From: Candidatus Allofournierella merdipullorum
GTDB lineage: Bacteria; Bacillota; Clostridia; Oscillospirales; Ruminococcaceae
Direction: 5' to 3'
Length of the DNA stretch: 64,000 nt
Assembly (NCBI GenBank): GCA_019116345.1
Contig: DXBV01000063.1
Coordinates: forward strand, 17,574 to 81,573
Shown: positions 5,070 through 59,114 of the stretch, piece after piece
Layout: every line of letters begins with the position of its first letter
How positions within the stretch are numbered: the first letter of the stretch is position 1
Program-made: the position numbers and the translations under genes
Notes under the pieces: generated by a model
Seen by the model: the letters and a program-made list of their open reading frames with translations, nothing else
Told to the model about the DNA's origin: nothing
The model's database searches: none

Positions 5070-5095
5070 CGGCGGCCCGAACACCGCACACAAAA

Positions 5096-5131
5096 GCGGG
5101 CGCATCGTTTTGACGATGCGCCCGCTTTTTT
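5096..5131. terminator. Bidirectional intrinsic terminator between convergent genes
   Basis: Stem GCGGGCGCATCG (5096-5107) pairs with CGATGCGCCCGC (5114-5125). It is flanked by an A-run (5092-5095) and a T-run (5126-5131). Confidence 0.8.
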
Positions 5132-5147
5132 CGCGTTGGCGCGGGGG

Positions 5148-6413
5148 TCAGTCCTCGAGGCGCCCGAAGCAGCGGAACAGATAGAACGTGTTGGCAAAAC
5201 CGGTGAGCAGAACGATGAGCAGCGTCGTGGCTGCGGCGCCCATCGAGCCCCACCACTGGATGAAGAACCAGTTCGAAAGGATGTTCGCGGGGCCGGACAC
5301 GGCGGACACGATGAAGTTGAACCTGAGCTTGCGCTGGGTGGTCATCAGGTTGCCGGCGATGGTGCGGAACGTGCCGGAGAAAAAGTAGCTCACCGCCAGC
5401 ACCCGGAACACCGGCACCGCGTCCAGGTAGATCTCGCCGAACAGGATGCGGATCAGCAGCGGGGCGAACAGGAACAGCCCCCCGGAGATGATCGCGTTCA
5501 GGCCGCCCACCGCCGCCAGCGTGGCCTTGTAGTGCTGTATGCACCACTGCTTTTCCCGGTTGTGCCGCGCGAAATAGGGATACAGATACACCGCGATGGC
5601 CGACGGGATAAAGGTAAGCGCGGTGGGGATGGTGGTGGCCACCTTGTAGCTGGCCAGGATGGTCTCGTTGGGGTCCACGATGCCCAGCACGAACACGTCG
5701 GACAGATACAGCAGCTGGGACAGGCCGTTGGTGGCCATGGACAACAGCGAGATCTTGACAAGGTCCACCCGGTCGGTGCGGTCGATGGCGCCGGGGCGGC
5801 CCAGCAGCCGGAACAGCGGGAACCTGAGCACGCAGCCGGCGTAGACAAAGGTGAGCAGCAGCGCCAGGTATTTGCCCCAGACCAGGCCGTATTCCCGGGC
5901 CGCCACCGCGCCCAGGATGGAGCACACGCAGACGCACAGGGTATTCACCGTGTTGAGCGCCGCATACTCCCTGTTGCGCCTCTGCCCCCGGAGGTAGATG
6001 GTCATCCACTCGAAGATGAATTGCAGCGGCGGCAGCAGACACAGTGCCTGGATCATCCGGCCGCCGCCGGGGATGGAGAGGGGCAGCAGGGTGCCGATGA
6101 GCACCAGCAGCACCGTCAGCGCCCCGTCGGCATACAGGCCCACCCGCGCGCCGAAGCGGCACAGATCATCGTAGCAGGCCCTGTCGTCCGCCCGCTCGCT
6201 GCACAGCTGCAACAGCCCCGACACCACACCCAGCCCGTTGAGCAGCAGCACCAGGCTGTAGATGTTCCAGGCGTAGGTGAAGACCCCGTACGCCTCCTTG
6301 GAGATCAGCCGCACCAGCACCACGTTGCTGAGGAACGTGAGGATCTTGTTGATGACGCTGCTGCCGAAGATGTGGAAAAAGCCGGTTTGAAAAAGTTTTT
6401 TAAAAGCTCCCAT
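5148..6413 (-). CDS. wzx: Polysaccharide/oligosaccharide flippase (Wzx, MOP superfamily)
   Basis: 421-aa multi-TM ORF. The N-terminus FFHIFGSSVINKILTFLSNVVLVRLISKEAYGVFTYAWNI is typical of polysaccharide-biosynthesis (Wzx/RfbX) flippases. It is the last gene of the glycosyltransferase operon. Confidence 0.8.
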   Translation of the reverse strand: MGAFKKLFQTGFFHIFGSSVINKILTFLSNVVLVRLISKEAYGVFTYAWNIYSLVLLLNGLGVVSGLLQLCSERADDRACYDDLCRFGARVGLYADGALTVLLVLIGTLLPLSIPGGGRMIQALCLLPPLQFIFEWMTIYLRGQRRNREYAALNTVNTLCVCVCSILGAVAAREYGLVWGKYLALLLTFVYAGCVLRFPLFRLLGRPGAIDRTDRVDLVKISLLSMATNGLSQLLYLSDVFVLGIVDPNETILASYKVATTIPTALTFIPSAIAVYLYPYFARHNREKQWCIQHYKATLAAVGGLNAIISGGLFLFAPLLIRILFGEIYLDAVPVFRVLAVSYFFSGTFRTIAGNLMTTQRKLRFNFIVSAVSGPANILSNWFFIQWWGSMGAAATTLLIVLLTGFANTFYLFRCFGRLED

Positions 6414-6428
6414 GCCAAACCAACGTCC

Positions 6429-7715
6429 TTATGTAATTGCCTCTTCCCGGGCACTGCCGGCGGCCAGCCGCTCGCCCAGCTGGTAAGCCTGGGCCACGCA
6501 GTCTTCGATGGAGCAGTATTTCCAGTCGCCGTAGCGGCCGATGGTGTGGATGTGCTCCTGGGCGAGGCGGGCCTTGAGCTGCTCCTTTTCCCGCTGGGAC
6601 TCCGCGGAGATGTGGACATAGGCCGGGTCCATCAGCACGCAGTTCCAGGCAAGCAGTTTGTGGGCGGTGACCAGCCCGGCCTTTTTCAGGTCGCACAGCA
6701 CCCGGTCGAACCAGTCCTCCGGCCGGACCCGGGCGTCCTCCGGCAGGCCGATCTCCACATAGAGGCTCATCTTGTCCCGGTGGAGGATGTTGTTGTAGAA
6801 GCCCACCCGGTAGAACACCAGGTCGGGGTCCGGGTAGTAGATCCAGTGGACCGTCCGGTCTTCAGGGGGCGCGTCGAAGCCCAGGTTGAAGATCAGGACC
6901 TTGTTGGAGGTGTAGCTCGCCCGGTGGGGCAGGCCGCACATGCTGAGCAGCCGGGGGAACGGCATGGTGCTGATCAGCCGCCGGTAGTGTACCTCCAGAT
7001 CACCCGCGACCGCCACCTGCCGGTCGGGCAGGATCCTTTCCACCTGCCGGCCCAGCCGGAGGCTGCCGGCGTCCACCTCTTTCAGCAGCTCCTCCACAAA
7101 GGCCGCCGCGCCTTTGGCGGAATAGAAGAACGTGTCGTTGTAGGTGCCGATCTTCTCCCCGCGAAAATGCCGGATGATCTCCGCAGGCTCCGCCTTTGGG
7201 AAAAAGTGGCCCATGGCGTCGATGTCCAGCTCGTTCAGGTCGCAGGAATAGAGCTTTTCGTTGTAGGGGATGAGGAATTTCTCGGCGATGGGCACGCCGA
7301 ATTTCGCATACAGCATCTCCTTGAAGTTGGCGGGCGCTTCCCCGCCCCGCCCCTCGAACAGGCCGCACAGGCAGTCGATGAACTCCTCCTTGTCCAGCTG
7401 GCAGATGTTGAACTGAAAGGGGTAGTCCACATAGCGGCCGCGGTAGAAGATAAGGGTGCGCTTGTGGTTGTACACATTGTCCCCGCTTTGGAGGAACGGG
7501 GCGAACCTGCGCCGGAGCTGCTGCTGGCTGAAATGAAAAAAGTGGCCCGCGTAGTCCCAGACGAACTCCCCCGCGTAAAAGGTCCGGCAATATCCCCCCG
7601 CTTCACGCTCCTTTTCCAGGATGAGATAGGAGCCCGCCTTTAGCCGGGAGGCCAGCGCCAGGCCGGACACCCCGGCGCCTATGATCAGATTTTCGGTGTG
7701 GACCGCTGTTTTCAT
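6429..7715 (-). CDS. FAD-dependent UDP-galactopyranose mutase-like enzyme (long, eukaryote-like form)
   Basis: Dinucleotide-binding motif IIGAGVSGLALASRL..LILEKEREAGG. The blocks YRGRYVDYPFQFNICQLDKEEFIDCL and C-terminal IGRYGDWKYCSIEDCVAQA resemble long-form UGMs from memory. The ORF track starts at 7721; I prefer the ATG at 7715 because the SD GAGGG abuts the first ATG. Confidence 0.65.
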   Translation of the reverse strand: MKTAVHTENLIIGAGVSGLALASRLKAGSYLILEKEREAGGYCRTFYAGEFVWDYAGHFFHFSQQQLRRRFAPFLQSGDNVYNHKRTLIFYRGRYVDYPFQFNICQLDKEEFIDCLCGLFEGRGGEAPANFKEMLYAKFGVPIAEKFLIPYNEKLYSCDLNELDIDAMGHFFPKAEPAEIIRHFRGEKIGTYNDTFFYSAKGAAAFVEELLKEVDAGSLRLGRQVERILPDRQVAVAGDLEVHYRRLISTMPFPRLLSMCGLPHRASYTSNKVLIFNLGFDAPPEDRTVHWIYYPDPDLVFYRVGFYNNILHRDKMSLYVEIGLPEDARVRPEDWFDRVLCDLKKAGLVTAHKLLAWNCVLMDPAYVHISAESQREKEQLKARLAQEHIHTIGRYGDWKYCSIEDCVAQAYQLGERLAAGSAREEAIT

Positions 7716-9973: not shown

Positions 9974-10927
9974 TCAAGGCGCGGAATATATTTTTTTGCC
10001 CAGCAGCGCAAGGGCCGCCGCGGCGCGGTTTTTCGCCCGGGCGTTTTTGTCCAGCAGCATCTGCCGCCGGTAGCCCTTTAAAAAGCGCCAGATCCTCTCT
10101 TCCGCCTGCCGCACCGCCTCGTCCGATCGGTCGGCCCCTTTCATCCAGCGCAGCACCTGGCTGTAAGAGCTGAACCTGCGGGCGTTGGCCGCGGGGAGGT
10201 ATTCCGGGCAGTTGGCCTCCACGAAAGCCACGATCTCATCCGCCGCGTCCAGCTGATCGAACATCCGCGGGCTGAAAGTCTGGTGCATGATGCTTTCGGG
10301 GTTCTCCCGGTAGGCGTAGAGCTTTTGGGGGATGTAGACCACCTTGTCCGCCTTATAGAGCACCTTGTATAAGGTGAACAGGTCCTCGTACAGCCGGCCC
10401 CGGGGGAAACGAAAGCCCTCCAAAAGGCTCCGCTGGTAGAGCTTGCCGCAGGCGCTGGTTTCAAAAGGCCGCTGGTAGAGCATACGCTCCATCGCCTCGG
10501 GGCCCGTGAACGCCGCCGCGCCGCCCCGCCGGGGCGGAAAGGGGGCGTCCTCCCGGGCCACCGCCAGCAGATCGCACACCACCACGTCCGCCCGGGCCCG
10601 CCGGGCCTCTTCCAGCAGGGTGGCCGCCAGGTCCGCGGACACCCAGTCGTCGCTGTCCACAAAGGTGACGTACTCCCCTCCTGCCTCCGCAAAGCCCGCG
10701 TTGCGGGCGTCGGACAGGCCGCCGTTGGGTTTGTGAAGAACGCGGATGCGCCGGTCGCAGGCGGCCAGTTCGTCGCAGATCCCGCCGCTGCCGTCGGTGG
10801 AGCCGTCGTCCACCAGGATGATCTCCAGCTCCTCCAGGGTCTGCCGCTGTATGCTGGCCACACATGTATGCAGGTACCGGGCCACGTTGTACACGGGAAC
10901 GATCACACTGACCTTTGCCTGCTTCAT
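9974..10927 (-). CDS. Family-2 glycosyltransferase
   Basis: The real start is MKQAKVSVIVPVYNVARYL...ILVDDGSTDGS...FVDSDDW, with the GT2 DxD-type motifs. ATG 10927-10925 overlaps the upstream stop as ATGA. The 452-aa track ORF (to 11332) is an unsupported extension inside the upstream gene. Confidence 0.9.
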   Translation of the reverse strand: MKQAKVSVIVPVYNVARYLHTCVASIQRQTLEELEIILVDDGSTDGSGGICDELAACDRRIRVLHKPNGGLSDARNAGFAEAGGEYVTFVDSDDWVSADLAATLLEEARRARADVVVCDLLAVAREDAPFPPRRGGAAAFTGPEAMERMLYQRPFETSACGKLYQRSLLEGFRFPRGRLYEDLFTLYKVLYKADKVVYIPQKLYAYRENPESIMHQTFSPRMFDQLDAADEIVAFVEANCPEYLPAANARRFSSYSQVLRWMKGADRSDEAVRQAEERIWRFLKGYRRQMLLDKNARAKNRAAAALALLGKKIYSAP

Positions 10928-12018
10928 GCCCGGGCCCTCCGCAGATAAAATTTCCCCAGCCGGGCGGCCTGTCCGGAAAGCTCCGGGACGGCCGCGCCCC
11001 TGGCCCTGTGTCCCCGGGGCAGGGCGCTGGCCCATTCCGCCGGGTCTTCCAGCGCCAGCTGCCGGGCGTTTTCCGCCACCACAGCCTGTGCCGGCACCCT
11101 GTCGGAAAACAGGCAGGGCAACCCGTTGGCCTGAGCCTCCAGCGCCACCACCGGCAACCCCTCGTAAAGGCTGGGCAGGCAAAACACATCCATGGCGGAG
11201 TAGAGCTTGTTCACATCCGCGCGGGCGCCGGTGAATACCACATCGTCTTGCAGCCCTGATCCCGCGACCTTGTCTTTGATCTGCTGCGCAAGTTCCCCTT
11301 CTCCCACAAGAAGCAGTCTGGCGTTCGGGCATTGCCGTTTGAGCGAAGCAAAGACCTGCACCAGAAACGCGTGGTTCTTGGCATAGGTGAACCGCCCCAC
11401 ATGCCCTGCCACAAACGCCTCCTGCGGTATGCCCAGCTCCCGCCGCAGCCGCGCGCGGGCCGCAGGGTCGAAAGCAAACTTTTCGGTTTCGATGGCATTG
11501 GGCATCACGCGGACCCTGCCCTTTTCAAAAGCCCGGTCACCGTACATCCAGCGCCCGGCTTTTTCGCCGCAGGCAAGCCAATCGGTGGCAAACAGTTTAT
11601 TGAAAGGCCGAAGCAGATACTTCAGCAAGGTCTTTTTGCCCTCGCCCCAGTGGGCGGTGGAGTGGTTGTGGCAGATCCGCACCGGCACGCCGGCGCGCCA
11701 GGCGGCGAACAGCGCGAACACCGACATGGTGGACAGATGGGCGTGGACGATCTGATACCGCCGCTGCCTGAACGCCCGGTACAGCGCCCGGTGGTAGGCC
11801 AGCGGCCGGCTGTAAGGGGGGATGGGGCAGATGCCCGCCCCCAGGCGCTCCAGCTCCGCCCGCTGGGGGAACGTGCTGTTTTCGGCAAAGTAGAAGTCAA
11901 ACTGTATCTGCTCATGGTCGATATGGCGATAATAATTCATCACCACCGTCTCGATGCCGCCGCTGTCCATGCGGTTGAGCACCTGGGCCACCCGCAGAGG
12001 CTGTGCTGCTGTGTTCAT
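10924..12018 (-). CDS. Family-4 glycosyltransferase (EpsF-like)
   Basis: 364-aa ORF with LRVAQVLNRMDSGGIETVVMNYY at the N-terminus and CLPSLYEGLPVVALEAQANGLPCLFSD (EX7E region). SD AGGTGAG lies upstream. Confidence 0.9.
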   Translation of the reverse strand: MNTAAQPLRVAQVLNRMDSGGIETVVMNYYRHIDHEQIQFDFYFAENSTFPQRAELERLGAGICPIPPYSRPLAYHRALYRAFRQRRYQIVHAHLSTMSVFALFAAWRAGVPVRICHNHSTAHWGEGKKTLLKYLLRPFNKLFATDWLACGEKAGRWMYGDRAFEKGRVRVMPNAIETEKFAFDPAARARLRRELGIPQEAFVAGHVGRFTYAKNHAFLVQVFASLKRQCPNARLLLVGEGELAQQIKDKVAGSGLQDDVVFTGARADVNKLYSAMDVFCLPSLYEGLPVVALEAQANGLPCLFSDRVPAQAVVAENARQLALEDPAEWASALPRGHRARGAAVPELSGQAARLGKFYLRRARA

Positions 12019-12036
12019 CCGGCGCTCACCTGCCCT

Positions 12037-13428
12037 TTATGCGATCTTCTCGTCGTTCTTCATGCCGCCGAAAACGGTCATGAAAAGGATCTTCACGTCC
12101 AGCCAGAGGCTCCAGTTCTCGATGTACCAGATGTCGTACTTCACCCGTTTCTCGATGCTGGTGTCCCCCCGCAGGCCGTTCACCTGGGCCCAGCCGGTGA
12201 TGCCCGGCCGCACCTGCTGGCGCACCAGATAGAGGGGGATCTCCTCCTTGAAGTGGTTCACATGGAACGGGATCTCCGGCCGGGGGCCGATGAGGCTCAT
12301 GTCCCCCTTGAGCACGTTGAAGAACTGGGGCAGCTCGTCGATGCTGTACTTGCGGATGAAGCTGCCGAACCGGGTCTTGCGGGGGTCGGCGTTGGTGCTC
12401 CAGCCGGTGTCCTCGGTGCCGGTGATCCGCATACTGCGGAACTTGTACATCCGAAAGATCTTTTTGTCACGGCCCACCCGCTCCTGCCGGAAGAGGATGG
12501 GCCCCGGGCTGGAAAGCCGCACGCCGATGGCCGCGAAGAGCATCACCGGGCTGGTGAGCACGATCAGCACCAGCGAGCCGACGATGTCCATGCAGCGCTT
12601 GACGATCCGCCAGAGCACGTTGTCCAGCGGGGTGGTCCGCATATTGATCAGCTTGGTGCGGCCCACCACGTCGATGGTGGGGTGGTCGGGGATGAAGTCG
12701 TTGTAAAAGGGGATGATGCTGATCCGCACGCCGGTCTTGTCGGCGGTGGCCAGCACCTGGCGCATGAAGCCGATCTCGTCCGGCTCCAGCGCCGCCACCA
12801 CCTCGTCCACCCCGCCGGCGCTGAGCACCGCCTCCAGCTGCTCAAAGGCGCCCAGCCGCGGCCCCAGACCGGGGCACTCCCGTTCGCTCACATAGCCGTC
12901 CAGCGCAAAGCCCATGTGGGGGTTGCGGCGCAGGTCCTCGGCGTACTGGCAGGCAAAGTGGCCGCTGCCCACCACCACCACATGTTTCTGGTTGTAGCCC
13001 AGCTTGCGGTAGTGGCGCAAAAAGCTGCGCACCACCGCCCGCTTGCCGATGACCAGCAGGGTGGAATACAGCCAGAAGAGGAACAGCGCCACCCGGGAGA
13101 ATTCACTCATCCGCACCAGGTACATCAGCGCCATAAGGGCCAGCACGCCCACCCCGTTGATCAGCCCGATGGTGAGGCTCTCGGTGCCCATCTCCTTGAA
13201 CCGGTAGGAGCCGTAGAGCCGGGCGAACAGGTACACCGCCACGATCGCCCCGCTGTATGCCAGCGCCATGCCCCAGTACAGGGGCTCGTCGATCCAGACA
13301 AGGGCGCCCTGGTGGCCGTCGATCAGGAAATACTTGGTGAACAGGGCGGCAAAATAGGCCGCAAAGATCAGCAGCGCGTCCGAGAGCAGGTTCAGTTCAT
13401 TGACCAGCCGCTGGTTTTTTCGGATCAT
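12037..13428 (-). CDS. Initiating polyprenyl-phosphate hexose-1-phosphate transferase (WcaJ/EpsL/CpsE-like bacterial sugar transferase)
   Basis: 463 aa with N-terminal TM helices. The C-terminal bacterial sugar-transferase domain reads KRCMDIVGSLVLIVLTSPVMLFAAIGVRLSSPGPILFRQERVGRDKKIFRMYKFRSM...PGITGWAQVNG. It is the first gene of the minus-strand operon. Confidence 0.9.
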   Translation of the reverse strand: MIRKNQRLVNELNLLSDALLIFAAYFAALFTKYFLIDGHQGALVWIDEPLYWGMALAYSGAIVAVYLFARLYGSYRFKEMGTESLTIGLINGVGVLALMALMYLVRMSEFSRVALFLFWLYSTLLVIGKRAVVRSFLRHYRKLGYNQKHVVVVGSGHFACQYAEDLRRNPHMGFALDGYVSERECPGLGPRLGAFEQLEAVLSAGGVDEVVAALEPDEIGFMRQVLATADKTGVRISIIPFYNDFIPDHPTIDVVGRTKLINMRTTPLDNVLWRIVKRCMDIVGSLVLIVLTSPVMLFAAIGVRLSSPGPILFRQERVGRDKKIFRMYKFRSMRITGTEDTGWSTNADPRKTRFGSFIRKYSIDELPQFFNVLKGDMSLIGPRPEIPFHVNHFKEEIPLYLVRQQVRPGITGWAQVNGLRGDTSIEKRVKYDIWYIENWSLWLDVKILFMTVFGGMKNDEKIA

Positions 13429-13474
13429 CCCTGTTTCCCCTTTCTTCGGATCTTTTCGCCGGTATATCTGATTT

Positions 13475-13502
13475 ATTATACCACAAAGCCCCCTGTTTCC
13501 AA
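13475..13502 (-). promoter_or_regulatory. Predicted promoter of the glycosyltransferase operon
   Basis: Minus strand: TTGGAA (13502-13497), 16-nt spacer, extended -10 TGGTATAAT (TATAAT = 13480-13475). Confidence 0.4.
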
Positions 13503-13534
13503 GCTGATCGCGGCCATTTTGCGCCGCCCGGCGC

Positions 13535-16117
13535 TCAGCCCCGGCGGGCGTTGTGTTCGGCGATGATGCGCTCGATCTGGCGCGCCGTGTCCTCCACCTC
13601 CCGGCGGAACATCCGGCTGGAGACCCGCAGGGTGCCGTGGCCCAGGATGATCAGCTGTTCGGCGCCGTCGCTGGTGACCACCCGCACCCGGCGCTCCTTT
13701 TCCAGTTTGCCCAGCTCGTAGGTCACCTTTTCAATGTAGGCGTCGGCGGTCTCCGCCTCTTTGGTATAGACCACCCAGACGCCCCCCTGCCGCTCCACGC
13801 CGCCGGCGCCGCCGGACACCCGCCAGGCGTCGAAGACCAGGATCAGGGTACACTGGTGGAACCCCTGGTAGTTGCAGAGGATCTGGATGAGCGCCTCCCG
13901 GGCGGCACAGAGATCCCGGCCGGCCAGCTCTTTCAGGTCCGGCCAGTCGAAGATCACGTTGTAGCCGTCCACCAGCAGATACTCCCTCTTTTCTTTCCAG
14001 GGGGCCGCCGGGGGCGCCGGCGTCTGCTCCCGGGCGCTGCGGAACAGCTCCCGCCGCTGCACCGGGCCGTAGGTGCGCTCGAAGATGGCCGCCAGCTGGG
14101 CGTCCTCCTCCAGGCTGCCCGACGCTGGGCGGGCGGCGGGCGCCGGCGCGGGCGCCGGGGGCTCTTCTTCGGCCTCCAGCCGCACCCGATTCTCCAGGTG
14201 CATTTTTGCAGCTGCTTCCCGCCAGGGCACCACCACCCCTGCTCCGTGACTGCAAAACACGGAGTCAGCGGGGTTTTCGGTGTCCCGCTCGGGATCATAC
14301 CCAACCGCCGCGATGACCTGCTCCGCGTTATGGCAGGGCTCGTAGCCCTTCACCGTAACGCTCAGCCGTCCGTCGCCCTTGGTGTAAGCCGCCACCTGGG
14401 CGGCGTAGCCGGTCATCTCCGACACTGGCGCCTCGCCCGTGAGCAAAGCAGTCTCGCCCAGCGTCTCGGGCGGGTCGAACCGGCCGCTCATCCGCTGCAC
14501 ATCCGCCATGGCGCGGCCGAGATTTGCAGCGGGCACCTCCAATCGGAAGGCATACCAAGGTTCCAGCAGAACATTCTCTGCCTGCATCAATCCGTGCCGC
14601 AGTGCCCGGAAGGTGGCCTGGCGGAAATCGCCGCCCTCGGTGTGTTTCAGGTGCGCTTTGCCCGCCACCAACGTGATTTTGATGTCAGTGATGGGGCTGC
14701 CGGTAAGCACGCCCGGATGCCGACGTTCCGCCAGGTGGCTCAAAATCAGCCGCTGCCAGTTTCCATCCAGCTCGTCCTCGCTGACGGCGCTTTCCAGCAC
14801 AAGGCCGCTGCCCCGCTCGCCCGGCTCCAGCAGCAGATGCACCTCGGCGTAGTGGCGCAGGGGCTCGAAGTGGCCCATGCCCACCACCGGGGCGGCGATG
14901 GTCTCCTTGTAAACGATGCTGCCCGGGCCAAAGGACGCCTCCAGCCCGAAGCGGCTTTTCAGCTGGTGGGCCAGCACCTCCTGCTGGACCTTGCCCATCA
15001 GCCGCGCCTGTACCCGGCCGGCGGCCTCGTTCCACTCCACCTGCAAAAGGGGGTCCTCCTGCTCCAGCAGCCGCAGCTTTGCCAGCAGGGTGGCCTCGTC
15101 GCATCCCGCCGGGGGCAGCACCTGGCAGGCCAGCACCGGCTCCAGGGCGGGGGCGGCGGCATTCTCCTCCTCCCCCAGCCCCTCGCCGGGCCAGGTGTGC
15201 TCCAGGCCGGTGACGGCGCACACCGTGCCCGCCGCGGCCTCGGCCAGGGGGGCGTATTTCGCGCCGGAGTACAGCCGCAGGCCGTCCGCTTTCTGCTGCC
15301 AGGCTTCGCCGGCGGCGGTGCGGCCCGAGAGCAGGGTCTTGGCTTTCAGGCTGCCGCCGGTGACCTTGATGTGGGTCAGCCGCGCGCCGGCCTCGTCCCG
15401 GGATATTTTAAACACCCGGGCCCCGAAAGCCGCCGGCCACACCGGCACGGGGGCCCACCGCTCCAGCCCCGCCAGCAGCTCCTCCACCCCCTGCAATTTA
15501 AGGGCCGAGCCGAACCAGCAGGGAAAGGCCCGCCGGGCGGCGATGAGGCCGGCAATGGTCCCCTCGCCCAGCGCGCCTGTGTCCAGGTATTCCTCCAGCG
15601 CGGCCTCGTCCAGGCCGGCCAGCTCCTCGGCCAATTCCCCGGCGGGCAGCGAAAAGTCCGCGAAGCCGCCGCCAAAGGCGGCGGTGAGCGCCGCCAGCAC
15701 CGCCGCCCGGTCTGCCCCCGGCAGGTCCATCTTGTTGACGAACACAAAGGTGGGCACCCGGTGGCGCGCCAGCAGCCGCCACAGGGTGCGGGTGTGGCTC
15801 TGCACCCCGTCGGTGCCGCTGACCACCAGCACCGCGCAGTCCAGCACCTCCAGGGTGCGCTCGGCCTCGGCGGAAAAATCCACGTGGCCGGGGGTGTCCA
15901 GCAGGGTGATCAATGCGCCGGGCAGCGGAAGCACTGCCTGTTTGGCAAAGATGGTGATGCCCCGGCGGCGTTCCAGCGCGTCGGTGTCCAGAAAGGCGTC
16001 TCCGTGGTCCACACGGCCGGGCTTTTTCAGCCGCCCGCCCCGGTAGAGCAGCGCTTCGCTGAGCGTGGTCTTGCCGGCATCCACATGAGCCAGGATACCA
16101 ACGGTGATGCGTTTCAT
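13535..16117 (-). CDS. Translational GTPase (EF-G/Tet(M) ribosomal-protection-like) fused to a C-terminal YacP/Rae1-type NYN ribonuclease domain
   Basis: Start ATG 16117 is preceded by GGGGAGAA (the track ORF starts at 16180). GTPase motifs are G1 AHVDAGKTT, G3 DTPGH and G4 NKMD, followed by EF-G-like domains II-V. A Pro/Ala linker EAEEEPPAPAPAPAARP follows. The last ~165 aa read YLLVDGYNVI..LVFDA..YTKEAETADAYIEK..VVTSDGAEQ, matching YacP/Rae1 NYN blocks. Confidence 0.85.
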   Translation of the reverse strand: MKRITVGILAHVDAGKTTLSEALLYRGGRLKKPGRVDHGDAFLDTDALERRRGITIFAKQAVLPLPGALITLLDTPGHVDFSAEAERTLEVLDCAVLVVSGTDGVQSHTRTLWRLLARHRVPTFVFVNKMDLPGADRAAVLAALTAAFGGGFADFSLPAGELAEELAGLDEAALEEYLDTGALGEGTIAGLIAARRAFPCWFGSALKLQGVEELLAGLERWAPVPVWPAAFGARVFKISRDEAGARLTHIKVTGGSLKAKTLLSGRTAAGEAWQQKADGLRLYSGAKYAPLAEAAAGTVCAVTGLEHTWPGEGLGEEENAAAPALEPVLACQVLPPAGCDEATLLAKLRLLEQEDPLLQVEWNEAAGRVQARLMGKVQQEVLAHQLKSRFGLEASFGPGSIVYKETIAAPVVGMGHFEPLRHYAEVHLLLEPGERGSGLVLESAVSEDELDGNWQRLILSHLAERRHPGVLTGSPITDIKITLVAGKAHLKHTEGGDFRQATFRALRHGLMQAENVLLEPWYAFRLEVPAANLGRAMADVQRMSGRFDPPETLGETALLTGEAPVSEMTGYAAQVAAYTKGDGRLSVTVKGYEPCHNAEQVIAAVGYDPERDTENPADSVFCSHGAGVVVPWREAAAKMHLENRVRLEAEEEPPAPAPAPAARPASGSLEEDAQLAAIFERTYGPVQRRELFRSAREQTPAPPAAPWKEKREYLLVDGYNVIFDWPDLKELAGRDLCAAREALIQILCNYQGFHQCTLILVFDAWRVSGGAGGVERQGGVWVVYTKEAETADAYIEKVTYELGKLEKERRVRVVTSDGAEQLIILGHGTLRVSSRMFRREVEDTARQIERIIAEHNARRG

Positions 16118-16240
16118 GTCGTATTCTCCCCGCTTCGTTCTCTTCTTCTGTATTGTATCATACTTTGATAAAATGTCCATTGCAACAGGAGCGCCAGATG
16201 CTTTATAATAACAGGGGCAATCCTTTGGAGGTGACCGCTG

Positions 16241-17659
16241 TTGCGATTCAAAATACTGAAAGGCCGCTCCGCCGGGTGGTGGGGTTGTGCCGCGGTTTTG
16301 GGCATCGCATTTTTTGCGATGCTGGTGTTCAATTTCCTCACACCGCTGATCTCAGACGACTACACCTATCTTCTCCGATATCCCACCAGCGAGCCGGTGG
16401 AGAATTTGGGCGACATTATTGAGTCTCAGATTGCCCACTACATGCAGTGGGGCGGGCGGACCATTGTCATCAGCCTGAACCAGATTTTTCTATGGCTCGG
16501 CAAGTGGCTTTTTAACCCGTTGAACGCCGCCATGTTCTGCGTCTTCGTTTGGGCCTGCGCCAAGCTGGCCGTCGGTCGCCGGCCGGTCCATCCCCTCCTT
16601 CTGGTGGTCGTGCTGGCCGCGCTGGTCCATTTCAATCCCTGCTTTGGCGCGGTGAACCTGTGGCTGTGCGGCTCCTGTGGGTATCTGTGGCCTCTTGCTC
16701 TGTGTCTGTTGTTCTTACTTCCTTATCGTCTGGCGCTGGACGGACTGGAACTGCGGGGTGCCGGGGCTGCCGCGGGCATTTTCTTTCTCGGACTTGCCGC
16801 CGGCTGGGGCAACGAAAACACCAGCGGCATGGCAGTGCTGGCCGCAGCGGTCTTTCTGGTCTTGCTGCGGGTTTTCCTCAAAAAGGTTCCTCTGTGGGCG
16901 TGGACCGGCGCGGCGGGCTGTCTTACAGGTTTTCTTCTGCTGATGTGCGCGCCCGGGCAATGGGTGCGTTTTGAATACGCCGGCAGCGACGGGCGCAGCT
17001 TTTTGACCGTATATGCCACCCGCATCATGAACGCGACCCACAGCCTGTTTCTCTACGGTGCCTGGCTGCTGGTGGCCTTCGGAGCATTGTACGGCCTGCT
17101 CATCCTGACAAAGCCCGGCGCAAAGGCGCTGGTGCTGCCGGCAGTGTTCTGTCTCCTGGGCCTGGCGGCAAACTACGCGCTGATTCTCTCTCCTGTATAT
17201 TACATTCGTTCCTTCTACCCCGTTCTGGCGATGCTGGTCTGCGCCGATGCCGGTTGCATCGCTGCCTTGGCGCAGACCCGTGTGGACACAGACCGCCTGC
17301 TGCGCGGCGCCCTTGCCGGGCTGTTCAGCGTGGTGCTCGTCTACGATCTTGCGATTGGCGGCTATGACATACTGAACTATTTCACCATGCGCCTTGTGCG
17401 GGACGGGGAGATCACCGCGGCGGTGCAGGCCGGCGAGACGGACGTGGAAACTTATGCGGTGTTCCCCTACACCCGCTTCTGCGGCGCCTGGGGCCAACCG
17501 GATATCCGTCAGGATCCCGGCAACTGGGTGAACAAAAACATGGCCCTGCACCTGGGTGCGGGCAGCATCCGCGCCGTGGAACAGCACTACTACCCCTTCC
17601 CCGGTTACGATGATTTTTCCAACACAGTGGACAAAGAGATGAGCCTCGCGCTGGAATAA
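16241..17659 (+). CDS. Polytopic membrane protein, putative GT-C-fold polysaccharide glycosyltransferase (DUF6056-like), paralog 1
   Basis: 472 aa with a TTG start 7 nt after GGAGGTG. It is multi-TM with an N-terminal LTPLISDDYTY loop motif, NLWLCGSCGYLW, AGWGNENTS, ILSPVYY and C-terminal PYTRFCGAWGQPDIRQDPGNWV. It is a clear paralog of 19287-20636. Confidence 0.7.
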   Translation: MRFKILKGRSAGWWGCAAVLGIAFFAMLVFNFLTPLISDDYTYLLRYPTSEPVENLGDIIESQIAHYMQWGGRTIVISLNQIFLWLGKWLFNPLNAAMFCVFVWACAKLAVGRRPVHPLLLVVVLAALVHFNPCFGAVNLWLCGSCGYLWPLALCLLFLLPYRLALDGLELRGAGAAAGIFFLGLAAGWGNENTSGMAVLAAAVFLVLLRVFLKKVPLWAWTGAAGCLTGFLLLMCAPGQWVRFEYAGSDGRSFLTVYATRIMNATHSLFLYGAWLLVAFGALYGLLILTKPGAKALVLPAVFCLLGLAANYALILSPVYYIRSFYPVLAMLVCADAGCIAALAQTRVDTDRLLRGALAGLFSVVLVYDLAIGGYDILNYFTMRLVRDGEITAAVQAGETDVETYAVFPYTRFCGAWGQPDIRQDPGNWVNKNMALHLGAGSIRAVEQHYYPFPGYDDFSNTVDKEMSLALE

Positions 17660-17669
17660 AAAACAAAAG

Positions 17670-17702
17670 CCTCCCCGCGAACGAACCGCGGGGAGGTTTT
17701 TT
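17670..17702. terminator. Bidirectional intrinsic terminator
   Basis: CCTCCCCGCG (17670-17679) pairs with CGCGGGGAGG (17687-17696). A T-run lies at 17697-17702 and an A-rich run lies upstream. It sits between convergent genes. Confidence 0.8.
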
Positions 17703-17703
17703 G

Positions 17704-19023
17704 TTATTCTGCAGCAGGTTTTGCAAAATTCGGCGTACGCTCCCGGGGCAGCAGATAGAGCACACAGGGTAAAAGCCACAGGCACACGTTGATGCAGGGC
17801 CAGGCAAAGTGCCCTTCCATAAAGGCGTGGGCCAGCATCACCACGAGGCAAGCACTCTCGGTCACCGCCCCCTTTTTCATCAGCCGCCACAGCAGCACCG
17901 TCACGGAGCCCCAGAGCAGAAGGCTTTCCACCGGACCGCCGTAGATCCACTGTGCCACATAGAAATTATCCACAACAAAGCCCGAATCGGTCAGCCGCTG
18001 GCCAGCGATGGCGATGGAGCTGCCGGTCAAAGCCTGGTTGGCGAGCATCAACCGGCCGGTGAAAAGGCCGTCCAGACGCGTCCAGAAGCCGCTGTCGGCA
18101 CGGTAGAGCAGGCCGCTCAGAAGACTTGCTGCAAAGGCTGCCGCCGGCGCGGCGCTCACCAGCCCCCGCACCCAGACCGGTTTTGCAAGGCCCGGAGCAA
18201 AACGCAGCACCGCAGCCAGTAAAATCAGCAGCGCGATGCAGACGGTGGCGGCGCGGCTGTCCGGCCCCTGGTCGCAAAACACCAGCGCCGCGGCCAGCAG
18301 CGCGAAATCAAACCACTTCAAATTTTTGGCCTGCCGCCAGCAGACATACATGATGCAGATGGCCAGCAGGATCGCGCCGGTAAGGTTGAACCAGCCATAG
18401 CCGAAACTGTCGCGGCCACGAGCGCCAAGAGATGGATCGCCATTGGTAAGCGTTTTAATCCATCCCATCGCGGCGCTTGTCACCACAGCCAGGAAGCTGG
18501 CCGCGCTCACCGCAAGTCCTGTTTTCAAGGCTTGCCGCATTCGTACATCCTTCGCCGCCAGGAAAAACATCATGCCTGCAACGACCCAAAACTTTCCGTT
18601 GTTCAAAAACACCCAGCGGAACACAAAGAAGAAGCAGTACCCGGCTCCCAACTGAAGGCCCGAGTAGCGGGTGAAAAACACCAGCTTCAGAATAATGAGC
18701 CAGAAATAGATGATCTCCAGCTTCGGAGCCAGGAACCCATACCATGAGGCGGTCGTCTCCCGCACATAGCTGTTCATAAAGAACATATCAAACTGCAAAA
18801 GAGCCATTGCAACGACGAACAGCCAGCTGCCGATCTGCACCCGCGTTTCGCCGCCCCAGCCACCAAATAGAAGGCGTTCATCGGTCAGCGCCGCGTGCAA
18901 CTTATCCTTCCATCCGCCCTTTGTGAGGAGGGCGCATCCGCCAAGCCACAGCAGACCCAACGTCCAGCCGATCAGGACCAGATCCAGATAACCGTAAATG
19001 CCCGTGGTAAACAATCTCGCCAA
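17704..19023 (-). CDS. Putative polysaccharide polymerase (Wzy-like / O-antigen-ligase-like multi-pass membrane protein)
   Basis: 439-aa ORF with 10 or more hydrophobic segments. It has a TTG start 7 nt after GAAGGAGAG. It is more A/T-rich than its neighbours, as is typical of wzy genes. I recognise no catalytic motif; the call rests on topology and context. Confidence 0.55.
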   Translation of the reverse strand: MARLFTTGIYGYLDLVLIGWTLGLLWLGGCALLTKGGWKDKLHAALTDERLLFGGWGGETRVQIGSWLFVVAMALLQFDMFFMNSYVRETTASWYGFLAPKLEIIYFWLIILKLVFFTRYSGLQLGAGYCFFFVFRWVFLNNGKFWVVAGMMFFLAAKDVRMRQALKTGLAVSAASFLAVVTSAAMGWIKTLTNGDPSLGARGRDSFGYGWFNLTGAILLAICIMYVCWRQAKNLKWFDFALLAAALVFCDQGPDSRAATVCIALLILLAAVLRFAPGLAKPVWVRGLVSAAPAAAFAASLLSGLLYRADSGFWTRLDGLFTGRLMLANQALTGSSIAIAGQRLTDSGFVVDNFYVAQWIYGGPVESLLLWGSVTVLLWRLMKKGAVTESACLVVMLAHAFMEGHFAWPCINVCLWLLPCVLYLLPRERTPNFAKPAAE

Positions 19024-19161
19024 ATCTTTTCTCTCCTTCGGGCCGACGCCGCCGGCGCCGCTTGTTTTTCAATTTGTGCACAAAGGCCATTTTATTCTGT
19101 GTGCATCTCAATTATAGTGGTTTTCATCCCCGTTGTCCACTTCTTCTGCGCCCACCGTTCA

Positions 19162-19190
19162 TTGAAATCCCGCGGGTTTTATGGTATCAT
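19162..19190 (+). promoter_or_regulatory. Predicted promoter of GT-C paralog 2
   Basis: TTGAAA (19162-19167), 17-nt spacer, extended -10 TGGTATCAT (TATCAT = 19185-19190). Confidence 0.4.
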
Positions 19191-19286
19191 AATAAGCACT
19201 TTTACGCTCCGCTGTTCTGAAAGGAGGAGTCCGCCCTGAAAGCGAAATGGAACGCGGCTCCGCTGCCCGCGAAGCTGGCAGCCGCC

Positions 19287-20636
19287 ATGGCCGCATTGGT
19301 CTTTCTGGCCATGCTGGCGCTCAACTGTCTGACGCCCTATGTGGCGGATGACTATACCTTCTCCTTCAGCTACGCCACCGGCGAGCGGCTGACCGGGCTT
19401 TGGAGCGTGCTGCAAAGCCAGTGGTACCACTACTTCCACTGGAGCGGCCGGTTTCTCATCAAGTGCCTTGCCCAAGGCTTCACTGTTCTGCCCAAGATCG
19501 TGTTCAATCTGCTGAACGCGGCGGTGTACGCCGGTCTCGGCCTTGTACTGCACCGACTGGCGATCGCGCGAAAGCGGCATTTTGAGCCGGCGGTGCTGGC
19601 GCTCATCTACCTGAGTCTGTGGATGGTCGCGCCGGTGTTCGGCCAGACGAACCTCTGGATGTGCGGCTCGGTGAACTACCTCTGGGCCACTTTTTTCTGC
19701 ATGGCGGCGCTCATTCCCTATGCGCTGCACCTGAACCGGGCCTTTTCCGCGCGCCGCTGGCTGGCGCCGGTTTGCCTTCTGGCGGGGCTTGTTGCCGGCT
19801 GGTCCAGCGAAAACACCAGCGCCGGGTTGCTGGTGGCGCTGGTGCTGTGTGTCGGGTTCTTCCTCTGGCGGGACAAAAAAGCTCCCCTCTGGGCCTGGCT
19901 TGGCCTTGCGGGCGCGCTGCTGGGCTTCGCGCTGCTGATCCTGGCGCCGGGCAACTACCAGCGTCAGGACGCCGCCGCCGATCCCCGCGGCCCGCTGACC
20001 GTGCTGGCGGTGCGTTTCCTCTCCGCCCTAAACCAACTGGTGAGCGGCGGCGGGCTGGTGCTTCTAGTACTCTTCGGCGTGCTCTTCTGCCTGCTGGCAC
20101 TTCAAAAGCCGAGTGTGTCCGGGCTGTTCTGGCCCCTGGCCCTCTTTGCCGCGGCCATGGGCGCGAATTTTGCCATGATCCTTTCGCCGGTATACTATCC
20201 CCGCTCCACCCACGGTGTGTTCACCTTCCTCACCGCCGCCTGCGCTGCTTGCGCGGTGCAGCTGGAGGGCAAAAGCATCCGCTGCGCGCTGGCTGCCGGC
20301 GCCGCCGGGCTCACCATGGCGGCGGCAGTGCAGTTCGTCTGGGCAGGATACGACATTGCCAGTTTCTTTGTGATGAAACAGACCCGGGAACAGGCCCTGC
20401 TGGCCGAGGCGGCGGCCGGGAATACCGAAGTGGTGACCTACGCCATTGAGCCTTACACCCGCTGGTGCGCCGGCTGGGGCCTGCCCGACCTGCGCCAGGA
20501 CCCCGAGGACTGGGTCTGCGCGGACACCGCGAAGTATTACGGGCTGGAAAGCCTTTCGGCCGACGAAGCCCGCACCTATCCCTTCCCCGGCAAGACCAAT
20601 ACCGCTTTTGAGACCGGTGAGATCCCGGACATCTGA
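19287..20636 (+). CDS. Polytopic membrane protein, putative GT-C-fold polysaccharide glycosyltransferase (DUF6056-like), paralog 2
   Basis: 449 aa from ATG 19287. It shares LTPYVADDYTF, NLWMCGSVNYLW, AGWSSENTS, ILSPVYY and PYTRWCAGWGLPDLRQDPEDWV with paralog 1. The frame is open from 19221, and a CTG at 19236 lies 6 nt after AAGGAGGAG, so the true start may be 19236. Confidence 0.7.
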   Translation: MAALVFLAMLALNCLTPYVADDYTFSFSYATGERLTGLWSVLQSQWYHYFHWSGRFLIKCLAQGFTVLPKIVFNLLNAAVYAGLGLVLHRLAIARKRHFEPAVLALIYLSLWMVAPVFGQTNLWMCGSVNYLWATFFCMAALIPYALHLNRAFSARRWLAPVCLLAGLVAGWSSENTSAGLLVALVLCVGFFLWRDKKAPLWAWLGLAGALLGFALLILAPGNYQRQDAAADPRGPLTVLAVRFLSALNQLVSGGGLVLLVLFGVLFCLLALQKPSVSGLFWPLALFAAAMGANFAMILSPVYYPRSTHGVFTFLTAACAACAVQLEGKSIRCALAAGAAGLTMAAAVQFVWAGYDIASFFVMKQTREQALLAEAAAGNTEVVTYAIEPYTRWCAGWGLPDLRQDPEDWVCADTAKYYGLESLSADEARTYPFPGKTNTAFETGEIPDI

Positions 20637-58978: not shown

Positions 58979-59114
58979 GACATCCGTCCTTTCATTTGTC
59001 TTTTTGCGGGGAAAGATTGCACGATCAGCTTTCACGGCCATTATACCACACCGGGCAGGAAATATGGTACAATATTCACGGAAAATTTAAAACCCCCGCG
59101 AAAGGTCGTGTCCC

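Follow-up and report, generated by a model that had tools for sequence, protein, structure and literature searches.

A Rae1-type ribonuclease domain fused to an EF-G-like translational GTPase in Clostridia: a candidate ribosome-docked mRNA endonuclease

In the window, the complete stretch of 64,000 nucleotides that was analysed, the minus strand codes at 13535..16117 (860 codons and a stop codon) for a protein that joins an EF-G-like translational GTPase to a Rae1-type NYN nuclease. We lean towards the view that this fusion protein is a GTP-gated, ribosome-docked mRNA endonuclease which takes on the job of Rae1 at stalled or collided ribosomes. That the GTPase would deliver the nuclease to ribosomes is a reasonable assumption, and it is the one that we prefer.

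As an observation the fusion is not new but has been on record since 2015/2017. TetM-like/NYN_YacP fusions in Clostridia were mentioned by Atkinson 2015 (BMC Genomics, PMC4342817), who listed ten species and placed the fusion proteins in the Tet subfamily, and also by Matelska 2017 (NAR, PMC5499597). Both papers leave the function open. The gene from the window shares architecture and taxon with these fusions and is a member of the same family. The framing in both papers is tetracycline resistance or rRNA processing, and Rae1/YacP does not figure there as a ribosome-associated mRNA nuclease. We found no functional study on a fusion member in the literature (ribosome binding, GTPase, nuclease, phenotype). 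Thus, the original prediction was right in that we found no characterised member, but the architecture had been described (PMC4342817, PMC5499597) and the protein is present in NCBI and UniRef (HIZ30889.1 and UniRef100_A0A9D2E4N3, both identical to it).

The fusion gene and its modules

The ORF runs without interruption from ATG 16117 to the stop codon at 13535-13537. The mechanical ORF extends further upstream, to ATG 16180, which is contained in a promoter-like site on the minus strand (16152..16179, TGGACA-16 nt-TACAAT with an extended -10 TG, 10/12 matches). We consider ATG 16117 the likely start because many relatives are about 860 aa long and because the Shine-Dalgarno sequence GGGGAGAA, as read from the sequence, is located just upstream (minus strand, 16124..16131, 6 nt from the ATG). 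Reading of the sequence thus bears out the uninterrupted 860-codon ORF with a Shine-Dalgarno sequence that had been predicted, and each motif quoted in the original prediction was found at its place in the translated ORF. Five promoter-like sites were seen, with 0.2 expected from shuffled sequences. From the position of the site, a 5′ untranslated region of about 27-35 nt would follow, into which a leader peptide or attenuator would not fit. An Rfam search of the region 13300-16500 gave no match.

All features described below are encoded on the minus strand. The G domain (15443..16117, aa 1-225) is matched by Pfam GTP_EFTU (aa 3-223, E 2e-47) and carries G1 AHVDAGKTT (16064-16090, aa 10-18), switch I RGITI with Thr55, G3 DTPGH with the catalytic His78 (15884-15898, aa 74-78), G4 NKMD (15725-15736, aa 128-131), and G5 GSAL. 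Among 30-37 relatives, G1, Thr55, DTPGH/His78, NKMD and G5 show little or no variation; when 125 distinct full-length relatives were considered, DTPGH was found in all of them and NKxD in 124. With this motif set intact, the GTPase module is predicted to be active. The G′ insert is short and helical, G4 and G5 are spaced by 72 aa, and the alignment to EF-G jumps by about 45 residues after aa 162, in the G′ region.

Domain II was not called in the Pfam search of the fusion protein. At its expected place (15170..15433, aa ~229-316), AlphaFold predicts a beta-strand region with strands at aa 232-315 (pLDDT about 83-95), and a match to EF-G domain II (PF22042) is precomputed in relatives. Domain III (14927..15142, aa 326-397; EFG_III, E 8e-8), domain IV (14579..14920, aa 400-513; EFG_IV, E 3e-16) and domain V (14324..14572, aa 516-598; EFG_C, E 5e-18) were all matched by Pfam. 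With GTP_EFTU and these three matches and with intact motifs, the claim of a complete translational GTPase of the EF-G/Tet clade is confirmed. Two nearly invariant, family-specific stretches of domain IV, GHFEPLRHYAEVHL (aa 415-428) and GKAHLKHTEGGDFRQA (aa 486-501), align to domain IV loops of EF-G and TetM and are among the best-conserved parts of the protein.

A Foldseek search matched the predicted fold to EF-G across about 690 aligned columns (E 1e-52), and many of the top matches are EF-G bound to 70S ribosomes. Given this match, which is based on a structural model, docking of the GTPase module to the ribosome is expected. The best PDB matches, both by sequence and by fold, are EF-G, and the five-domain layout and the GTPase motifs are shared. 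The histidine of the 'SYH' motif in EF-G domain IV aligns to His489, and, as a further similarity, domain V is continued by a helix (aa 598-605) in a segment to which some EF-G alignments extend. There are also clear differences to EF-G. Compared with the GGRGQ-type loop of EF-G, the first domain IV stretch is 4 residues shorter and reads GHFEPLRHYAEV, the G′ insert is short, and the C-terminus has about 260 additional residues. The protein scores 266 bits with TIGR00484 (cut-off 659.4) and 310 bits with the best EF-G subfamily model (cut-off 583); cut-offs of the other NCBIfam EF-G models are 513-890.

Domain V is followed by a conserved extension (14198..14323, aa 599-640) which includes CHNAEQVIAAVGYDPERDTENPADSVFCSHGAGVVVPW and has Y607, D612, S619, F621 and G625 as near-invariant residues. 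In the AlphaFold model it consists of two helices with a beta-hairpin between them (pLDDT about 78-84). In the PDB sequence search the GTPase module has no match past about aa 605, and the extension does not align to the C-terminus of TetM.

The two modules are connected by a flexible tether of about 70 residues (13985..14197, aa 641-711), as judged from AlphaFold pLDDT. It opens with the acidic Pro/Ala stretch EAEEEPPAPAPAPAARP (aa 646-662, about 14132-14182), which agrees with the linker noted in the original prediction, and continues with the conserved helix EDAQLAAIFERTYGPV (14066-14113, aa 669-684; modelled as helix at aa 669-683) and a second variable stretch. In the helix, I678 and T682 are near-invariant, and L675, I678, T682 and G684 are invariant in A3. 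In 67 relatives, 84-146 aa (median 101) separate the DSVF motif from VDGYN, and for the family as a whole the disordered tether has about 70-100 residues. The pLDDT drops below 50 at aa 649-667 and 682-709, and therefore the model does not fix the placement of the nuclease relative to the GTPase body.

The nuclease domain (13538..13984, aa 712-860) is of the Rae1/YacP type. The Pfam family NYN_YacP (PF05991) matches aa 714-857 with E 6e-44 (150.4 bits, cut-off 24.6), which settles the profile check that had been proposed for the last ~170 aa. The match spans profile positions 1-143 of 166, so that the last ~23 positions (144-166) are absent here; the tail after TSD has 43 aa, compared with a family median of 61.5. 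The motifs YLLVDGYNVI, LVFDA, YTKEAETADAYIEK, VVTSDGAEQ and SSRMFRREVE are present. According to Matelska 2017 (PMC5499597), NYN_YacP proteins are characterised by a GYN motif after the first Asp and by four conserved catalytic Asp residues. Here, these residues are D717 (codon 13967-13969), D763 (13829-13831), D792 (13742-13744) and D817 (13667-13669), invariant in 37 sequences and present in at least 123 of the 125 distinct full-length relatives. The alignment with B. subtilis YacP/Rae1 (PDB 5MQ8/5MQ9; E 9e-26, 44% identity) covers residues 3-141 of the latter and has LLVDGYN/VDGYN, VFDA, ETAD and TSD in register with 5MQ8. The C-terminal NYN domain with its catalytic acidic residues, as originally proposed, is thus substantiated, and with the catalytic tetrad conserved the nuclease is predicted to be active.

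Distribution and genomic context

Relatives of the fusion protein are encoded in at least 597 GTDB species-level genomes or loci, compared with the ten species listed by Atkinson 2015 (PMC4342817), and in at least 545 metagenome loci. The genomes belong to Oscillospiraceae, Ruminococcaceae, Lachnospiraceae and their relatives. Allofournierella, Fournierella and Flavonifractor are the closest named relatives, and Faecalibacterium, Ruminococcus, Blautia, Dorea and Flavonifractor are among the names in the record titles of the loci that were inspected. As these Clostridia are dominant in the gut, its microbiome may commonly contain a ribosome-quality-control factor that has so far escaped study.

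We consider the chance that an assembly or sequencing error has joined two adjacent genes to be negligible. The single-ORF architecture recurs in independent assemblies, is represented by 125 distinct full-length ORFs and is also found on megabase-scale contigs. The junction itself is bridged by conserved sequence, namely the extension that follows domain V and the tether helix. A single reading frame is compatible with 79 of the 80 species-level loci inspected; in the only split case (L044) the frameshift is within the G domain, away from the module junction. A frameshift or assembly join at the junction, which the original prediction wanted to see excluded, is refuted by this conservation across species, and the survey of orthologues found the fusion conserved as one polypeptide in Clostridia.

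Polysaccharide-synthesis genes surround the fusion gene in the window. There are no conserved neighbours across 80 loci, no integrase, transposase, transposon or ICE genes were seen in the neighbourhood, and rRNA-processing genes do not adjoin the gene in the window or in the 80 loci. The context differs from that of Rae1, a free-standing protein (about 170-180 aa) encoded in an mrnC-yacO-yacP context, whereas the fused domain is the C-terminal part of an 860 aa protein from unrelated and variable contexts, and lacks the last ~23 Pfam positions in the window protein. The gene has a GC3 of 0.86, like its neighbours, its composition matches that of the host, it has the promoter-like site described above to itself, and it is single-copy with a family-wide distribution. 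The best explanation is a housekeeping-like, vertically inherited gene family of Clostridia rather than a mobile or defence gene.

Proposed action at stalled and collided ribosomes

The original prediction took Rae1 as an A-site mRNA endonuclease. This premise has since been revised. A 2026 preprint (PMC13622287) links Rae1 to collided ribosomes that it feeds to tmRNA. The mRNA must be under translation for Rae1 to act, and action takes place where ribosomes stall or collide; this fits a partner domain which docks to the ribosome.

We propose that the GTP form of the GTPase would dock at the ribosomal factor-binding site in the manner of EF-G or Tet(M), with domain IV reaching the decoding centre. 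The tethered nuclease would thereby be kept near the mRNA of a ribosome that is unable to advance, and would cleave this mRNA, which is what free Rae1 does where ribosomes have stalled or collided. GTP hydrolysis would then free the factor, and tmRNA would rescue the ribosomes on the truncated mRNA.

The geometry that we prefer is more speculative. Native disomes of B. subtilis combine a non-rotated stalled ribosome with a collided one in the rotated/hybrid state (PMC10897456). Of two collided ribosomes, the factor may bind to the trailing one, whose rotated state is recognised by EF-G. The nuclease would then be at the mRNA entry side of the trailing ribosome, opposite the mRNA exit side of the leader that has stalled. 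This position would coincide with the cut site reported for Rae1, which lies 12 nt upstream of the codon in the A site of the leader. The first of the two domain IV stretches is shorter than in EF-G and differs in sequence, which makes EF-G-like binding to a rotated A site occupied by tRNA an assumption; it is equally possible that the fusion factor binds to an empty A site.

We attach clearly less weight to a reading in which the fusion is a self-contained collision sensor and no-go-decay nuclease that replaces free Rae1 in Oscillospirales/Lachnospirales, which we regard as possible but doubtful. The EF-G-like module would sense the trailing ribosome, locked in the rotated/hybrid state that EF-G ordinarily binds but in this case is unable to translocate. 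The tether of ~70-100 residues would put the nuclease onto the mRNA between the ribosomes, with GTP hydrolysis returning the factor to its initial state.

The proposed logic, a nuclease which acts at a stalled or collided ribosome and leads to rescue, is shared with SmrB from E. coli and with Cue2/NONU-1 from eukaryotes. In contrast to these, the nuclease of the fusion is of the NYN and not of the SMR type, the folds being unrelated, and recruitment would be due to the fused GTPase and not to disome-interface or ubiquitin contacts. Hbs1-Dom34 is a system where a translational GTPase is used to probe the A-site region. The fusion factor would do so alike, but Hbs1-Dom34 has no nuclease; mRNA-cutting activity was once suspected there and, to our knowledge, never found. 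If the less favoured collision-sensor reading holds, the fusion would be the first translational GTPase that itself carries an mRNA-cutting activity. Because Rae1 binds only transiently, there is no ribosome-bound structure of it (PMC13622287). For the question of how Rae1 reaches and engages the ribosome, a natural EF-G-like fusion is a convenient starting point. From the fusion one would predict action of the nuclease near the factor-binding side of the ribosome, and locking with GDPNP could enable cryo-EM; trapping with a non-hydrolysable GTP analogue would, if the collision-sensor reading is true, yield the first structure of a Rae1 domain working on a ribosome.

Alternative explanations

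The factor-binding site of the ribosome is near the sarcin-ricin loop, h44 and the A-site tRNA. A nuclease brought there by a GTPase docked to ribosomes or subunits might cleave rRNA or tRNA instead of mRNA, and this could serve ribosome maturation or quality control, turnover upon starvation, or inactivation of damaged ribosomes. The idea gains from the connection of NYN_YacP with an rRNA/tRNA processing operon that includes mrnC and yacO (PMC5499597). We nevertheless rate it as rather unlikely, as translation-dependent mRNA cleavage is the activity of all characterised Rae1/YacP nucleases, the fused domain shares the catalytic set and 44% sequence identity with Rae1, and rRNA-processing genes are lacking next to the fusion gene in the window and in the 80 loci. 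A toxin-like shut-off, where phage or stress causes the GTPase to target ribosomes and the nuclease to destroy mRNA globally, as in abortive infection, had been suggested in the original prediction as a defence-like translation arrest. Fusions of nucleases with NTPases are common in defence systems, and the 2026 preprint speculates that Rae1-type cleavage could act against phage transcripts that stall ribosomes (PMC13622287). However, the search of PADLOC-DB with the fusion protein returned no family at E up to 0.01, a partner gene, an immunity gene or a defence island is seen neither in the window nor in related loci, and the single-copy, family-wide distribution and host-like composition speak against it. 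The suggestion is without support from these analyses, and we consider it highly improbable.

Only slightly less improbable is a ribosomal protection protein against tetracycline, with the nuclease as an accessory or as part of a novel mechanism. In TetM-ribosome structures, the YSPVS-type motif of loop III in domain IV contacts the drug site and dislodges tetracycline. Such an activity of the domain IV tip loops is also described by Atkinson 2015 (PMC4342817), whose Tet-subfamily placement of the fusions supports this explanation. The protein, like many members of the family, is named 'TetM/TetW/TetO/TetS family tetracycline resistance ribosomal protection protein' in NCBI and UniRef, the G′ region of its G domain is short as in Tet proteins, and tet_protect is its best-scoring NCBIfam model. 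However, all Tet models score far below their cut-offs: 380 bits for tet_protect (775), 222 for TetM/W/O/S (1100), 185 for Tet(M) (1420), 322 for Otr(A) (900) and 229 for Tet(Q) (1425). In domain IV, KAHLKHTEGGDFR from TetM was aligned to LYYSPVSTPADFR, and at loop III GLYYSPVSTPADFR aligns to GKAHLKHTEGGDFR, so that YYSPVS is replaced by AHLKHTEGG (the TetM query was checked to be identical to PDB 3J25/3J9Y). A DFR motif follows loop III in both proteins. The C-terminal segment of TetM does not align to the fusion. For domains IV-V, EF-G is a closer match (E 6e-19) than TetO (2.5e-12) or TetM (1.8e-10), and the top 50 fold matches include no Tet structure. A leader or attenuator and nearby transposon or ICE genes are lacking, the composition is host-like, and hundreds of species carry the gene with varying neighbours. 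Calling the GTPase 'Tet(M)-type', as had been done originally, is acceptable only loosely, in the sense of the EF-G/Tet clade; by the Tet cut-offs and by loop III it is not, and domains IV-V and the overall fold are closer to EF-G.

Most likely, then, the fusion is not a tetracycline-resistance protein, and databases probably mislabel its gene as a tetracycline-resistance gene. Resistome surveys which are based on product names could therefore over-count tet genes in gut metagenomes.

The two catalytic modules and their tether

The fusion gene consists of an unbroken reading frame of 860 codons (13535..16117, minus strand), and all of the motifs quoted in the original prediction are present at the positions assigned to them. 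The longest mechanical ORF begins further upstream, at ATG 16180, which is contained in a promoter-like site (TGGACA-16-TG-TACAAT, 16179..16152, minus strand). ATG 16117 is the likely start, because the SD sequence GGGGAGAA is found just 5′ of it on the minus strand and because many of the relatives retrieved by protein search have a length of about 860 aa. The gene downstream of the fusion gene is preceded by a promoter-like site of its own (13502..13475) and therefore the fusion gene may well be transcribed separately. An Rfam search in and around the gene gave no match, so that no RNA leader or riboswitch was detected.

The reading as an EF-G-type GTPase with a Rae1/YacP-type NYN nuclease was borne out by Pfam matches to GTP_EFTU (aa 3-223, E 2e-47), EFG_III (aa 326-397, E 8e-8), EFG_IV (aa 400-513, E 3e-16), EFG_C (aa 516-598, E 5e-18), and, at the C-terminus as predicted, NYN_YacP (aa 714-857, E 6e-44, 150 bits with a cut-off of 24.6). 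Residues 3-141 of YacP/Rae1 from B. subtilis (PDB 5MQ8/5MQ9) align with the NYN part (E 9e-26, 44% identity), and the VDGYN, FDA, ETAD, and TSD blocks of the two match up.

In the AlphaFold model of the fusion protein (mean pLDDT 77, pTM 0.61), the EF-G-like body is modelled confidently. Domain V is followed by a conserved extension (aa 599-640) which forms a helix, a hairpin, and another helix, and for which a PDB sequence search gave no match past about aa 605. The tether is disordered except for one conserved helix, EDAQLAAIFERTYGPV (aa 669-684), and leads to the NYN domain (aa 712-859); neither the nuclease nor the tether helix is confidently placed relative to the GTPase body. In the relatives, the DSVF motif and VDGYN are separated by 84 to 146 aa (median 101). 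The protein ends about 23 Pfam positions before the full NYN_YacP domain, while the tail is longer in many relatives. Several of them, fused ones included, have a conserved C-terminal tail ('NYLFD...L...E.RLG') which is absent from the protein encoded in the window.

Fixed positions were read from two alignments, one with 37 and one with 30 relatives. The GTPase motifs, among them the catalytic His78, show no or almost no variation, the four nuclease aspartates (D717, D763, D792, D817) are all invariant, and domain IV contains two near-invariant stretches, GHFEPLRHYAEVHL and KAHLKHTEGGDFRQA. Among 125 distinct full-length ORFs, DTPGH is found in all, NKxD and the switch I motif RG[IV]T[IV] each in 124. 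Of the nuclease motifs, those with the second to fourth Asp occur in at least 123. The protein thus has two intact, co-conserved catalytic modules which are connected by a flexible tether.

Affiliation of the GTPase module

In NCBI and UniRef, the exact protein (HIZ30889.1, UniRef100_A0A9D2E4N3) is named 'TetM/TetW/TetO/TetS family tetracycline resistance ribosomal protection protein', and many of its relatives carry the same tetracycline-resistance name. The top NCBIfam model is indeed tet_protect, but with only 380 bits compared to a cut-off of 775, and the TetM/TetW/TetO/TetS model reaches 222 bits compared to a cut-off of 1100; the EF-G models likewise remain far below their cut-offs. When the whole GTPase module was compared to PDB sequences, EF-G scored higher (241 bits) than TetO (199 bits) and TetM (192 bits). 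For domains IV-V alone, which are EF-G-like, the E-value was 6e-19 for EF-G as compared to 2.5e-12 for TetO and 1.8e-10 for TetM. The best 50 fold matches comprise EF-G, mitochondrial EF-G paralogues, and archaeal EF-2. Many of these structures are ribosome-bound, and no Tet structure is among the 50. In its fold, the GTPase thus corresponds to ribosome-bound EF-G. The loop regions of its domain IV are highly conserved.

Nevertheless, the module differs from both groups. Compared to EF-G, the first near-invariant stretch of domain IV is shorter by 4 residues and has been rewritten, while in the second stretch His489 matches the histidine of the EF-G 'SYH' motif. The short G′ region is shared with Tet proteins. 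However, loop III of TetM domain IV, LYYSPVSTPADFR, is opposite KAHLKHTEGGDFR in the fusion protein, so that the loop III motif is not kept, and the C-terminal segment of TetM (we used the sequence identical to PDB 3J25/3J9Y) could not be aligned with the fusion protein. The GTPase module is a separate subfamily within the EF-G/Tet clade, and the protein lacks the features by which tetracycline protection proteins are defined. With a tet_protect score so far below the cut-off and without the TetM loop III motif, a function in tetracycline protection is unlikely and the resistance-gene name is probably wrong. As the gene is present in at least 597 gut species, surveys that identify genes by product name could count too many tet genes.

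In one relative (P0238, 1156 aa), the G′ region, which lies between G4 and G5, contains a low-complexity insert of about 300 residues rich in Gly, Ser, Ala, Arg, and Asp, which suggests that the G′ surface tolerates large inserts.

Proposed action on stalled ribosomes

The fusion has been recorded only in passing mentions (Atkinson 2015, PMC4342817; Matelska 2017, PMC5499597), and a full-text literature search did not reveal a functional study. As the architecture has been on record since 2015 and the protein is present in public databases, the novelty attributed to it in the original prediction was overstated. That prediction also started from the assumption that Rae1 cuts in the ribosomal A site, which is outdated since Rae1 is no longer thought to do so. 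According to a September 2026 preprint, Rae1 turns collided ribosomes into substrates for tmRNA; the authors stress that a structure of ribosome-bound Rae1 is lacking (PMC13622287). The GTPase fusion is not mentioned in the Rae1 literature that we surveyed.

We moderately favour a function as a ribosome-docked, GTP-gated mRNA endonuclease which acts on stalled or collided ribosomes. The GTP form would bind to the factor-binding site and place domain IV at the decoding centre, the tethered Rae1-type nuclease would cleave the mRNA on a ribosome that is unable to progress, and GTP hydrolysis would release the factor. Ribosomes on the truncated message could then be rescued by tmRNA. As a rough estimate, the 70-100 disordered tether residues should be more than long enough to reach the side at which the mRNA enters the same ribosome.

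A more specific version, in which the protein is a collision sensor, is put forward only tentatively. EF-G binds to the rotated state of the ribosome. One may speculate that, when ribosomes collide, the factor binds to the trailing one in its rotated state. The entry side of this ribosome would then be opposite the stalled leader's exit side, the reported site of Rae1 cleavage. In native disomes from B. subtilis, the stalled ribosome is non-rotated while the collided one is in a rotated/hybrid state (Park 2023, PMC10897456). The main rival to mRNA cleavage, which we consider doubtful, is a role in the quality control or turnover of ribosomes, with rRNA or tRNA as the substrate of the nuclease. 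A defence-like role, which had also been suggested, is very unlikely and was rejected, as a PADLOC search gave no match for the fusion protein.

No conserved neighbour was found in 80 species-level loci or in the window, and this also applies to the HTH partner noted in Matelska 2017 (PMC5499597). The GC3 of the fusion gene (0.86) is like that of the neighbouring genes. Based on the varied neighbours, the host-like GC3, and the lack of a PADLOC match, the profile is that of a vertically inherited housekeeping-type gene rather than that of a resistance gene on a mobile element or of a defence island. Together with the Rae1 work from 2025-2026, the fusion provides a direct experimental route to ribosome engagement by Rae1-type nucleases.

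In the window, the gene is flanked by polysaccharide-synthesis genes (9974-13428, minus strand, and 16241-20636, plus strand). Downstream on the minus strand, 12037-13428 encodes a Bac_transf sugar transferase and 9974-11332 a family 2 glycosyltransferase, and two paralogous DUF6056 membrane proteins (16241-17659, 19287-20636) are encoded upstream in divergent orientation on the plus strand. The window contains no second gene for a NYN protein or a translational GTPase, and no second NYN gene occurs in the 1.49 Mb of fetched loci, which do not represent whole genomes. Two window ORFs with a length similar to translational GTPases proved to be ordinary housekeeping genes, coding for the chaperone HtpG/Hsp90 (638 aa, 47020-48936, minus strand) and a Firmicute-type class III fructose-1,6-bisphosphatase (683 aa, 56990-59041, minus strand).

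Distribution of the fusion

A protein search retrieved more than 120 full-length relatives with 60-96% identity and the same five Pfam domains, some of which are encoded on megabase-scale contigs of Fournierella/Allofournierella and Flavonifractor. Further relatives, including those from Pseudoflavonifractor and Lachnospiraceae, were added by a profile search. When one genome per GTDB species was scanned with the part from domain IV to NYN, at least 597 loci were found to encode a relative, and this part is covered in all of the best 80 loci. According to their record titles, these 80 are from Oscillospiraceae, Ruminococcaceae, Faecalibacterium, Lachnospiraceae (Blautia, Dorea, Anaerobutyricum, Herbinix), Acutalibacteraceae, Intestinimonas, and Anaerotruncus. 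The GTPase-NYN family is thus far larger than earlier reported and is at home in dominant gut bacteria.

Wherever the contig permits, the G1, domain IV, and NYN motifs share one frame, which holds for 79 of the 80 loci. Conservation across independent genomes rules out a frameshift or assembly join, and the chance of a sequencing artefact is negligible. In the sole exception (L044, uncultured Ruminococcus sp. RUG12488, ~4785-7380), the gene is split by a frameshift within the G domain (aa ~132 to ~181), so that this locus is likely to be a pseudogene or to contain a sequencing error.

It had been left open if some relatives have two adjacent genes instead. This was looked for and rejected, most other relatives being fused. 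Several protein clusters from the fused clade (P0219/P0400 with 184 aa, P0181, P0215, P0193, P0240) look like separate NYN proteins, and such short cases are located at contig ends or on low-coverage contigs. A scan seeded with the apparently free-standing 184-aa protein matched at least 545 metagenome loci. In one of these (L081), a sequence 99% identical to P0400 is part of a 982-codon ORF which carries G1 and domain IV motifs. The free-looking forms, at least the P0400 cluster, are thus very likely gene-call fragments.

A different case is P0261 (821 aa, from a 45 kb ENA contig), for which the alignment with other members starts only at the tether. Its N-terminal part reads like a large serine recombinase and is in frame with the tether helix and the NYN domain, which suggests either that a serine-recombinase mobile element has integrated into a GTPase-NYN gene or that the contig is chimeric.
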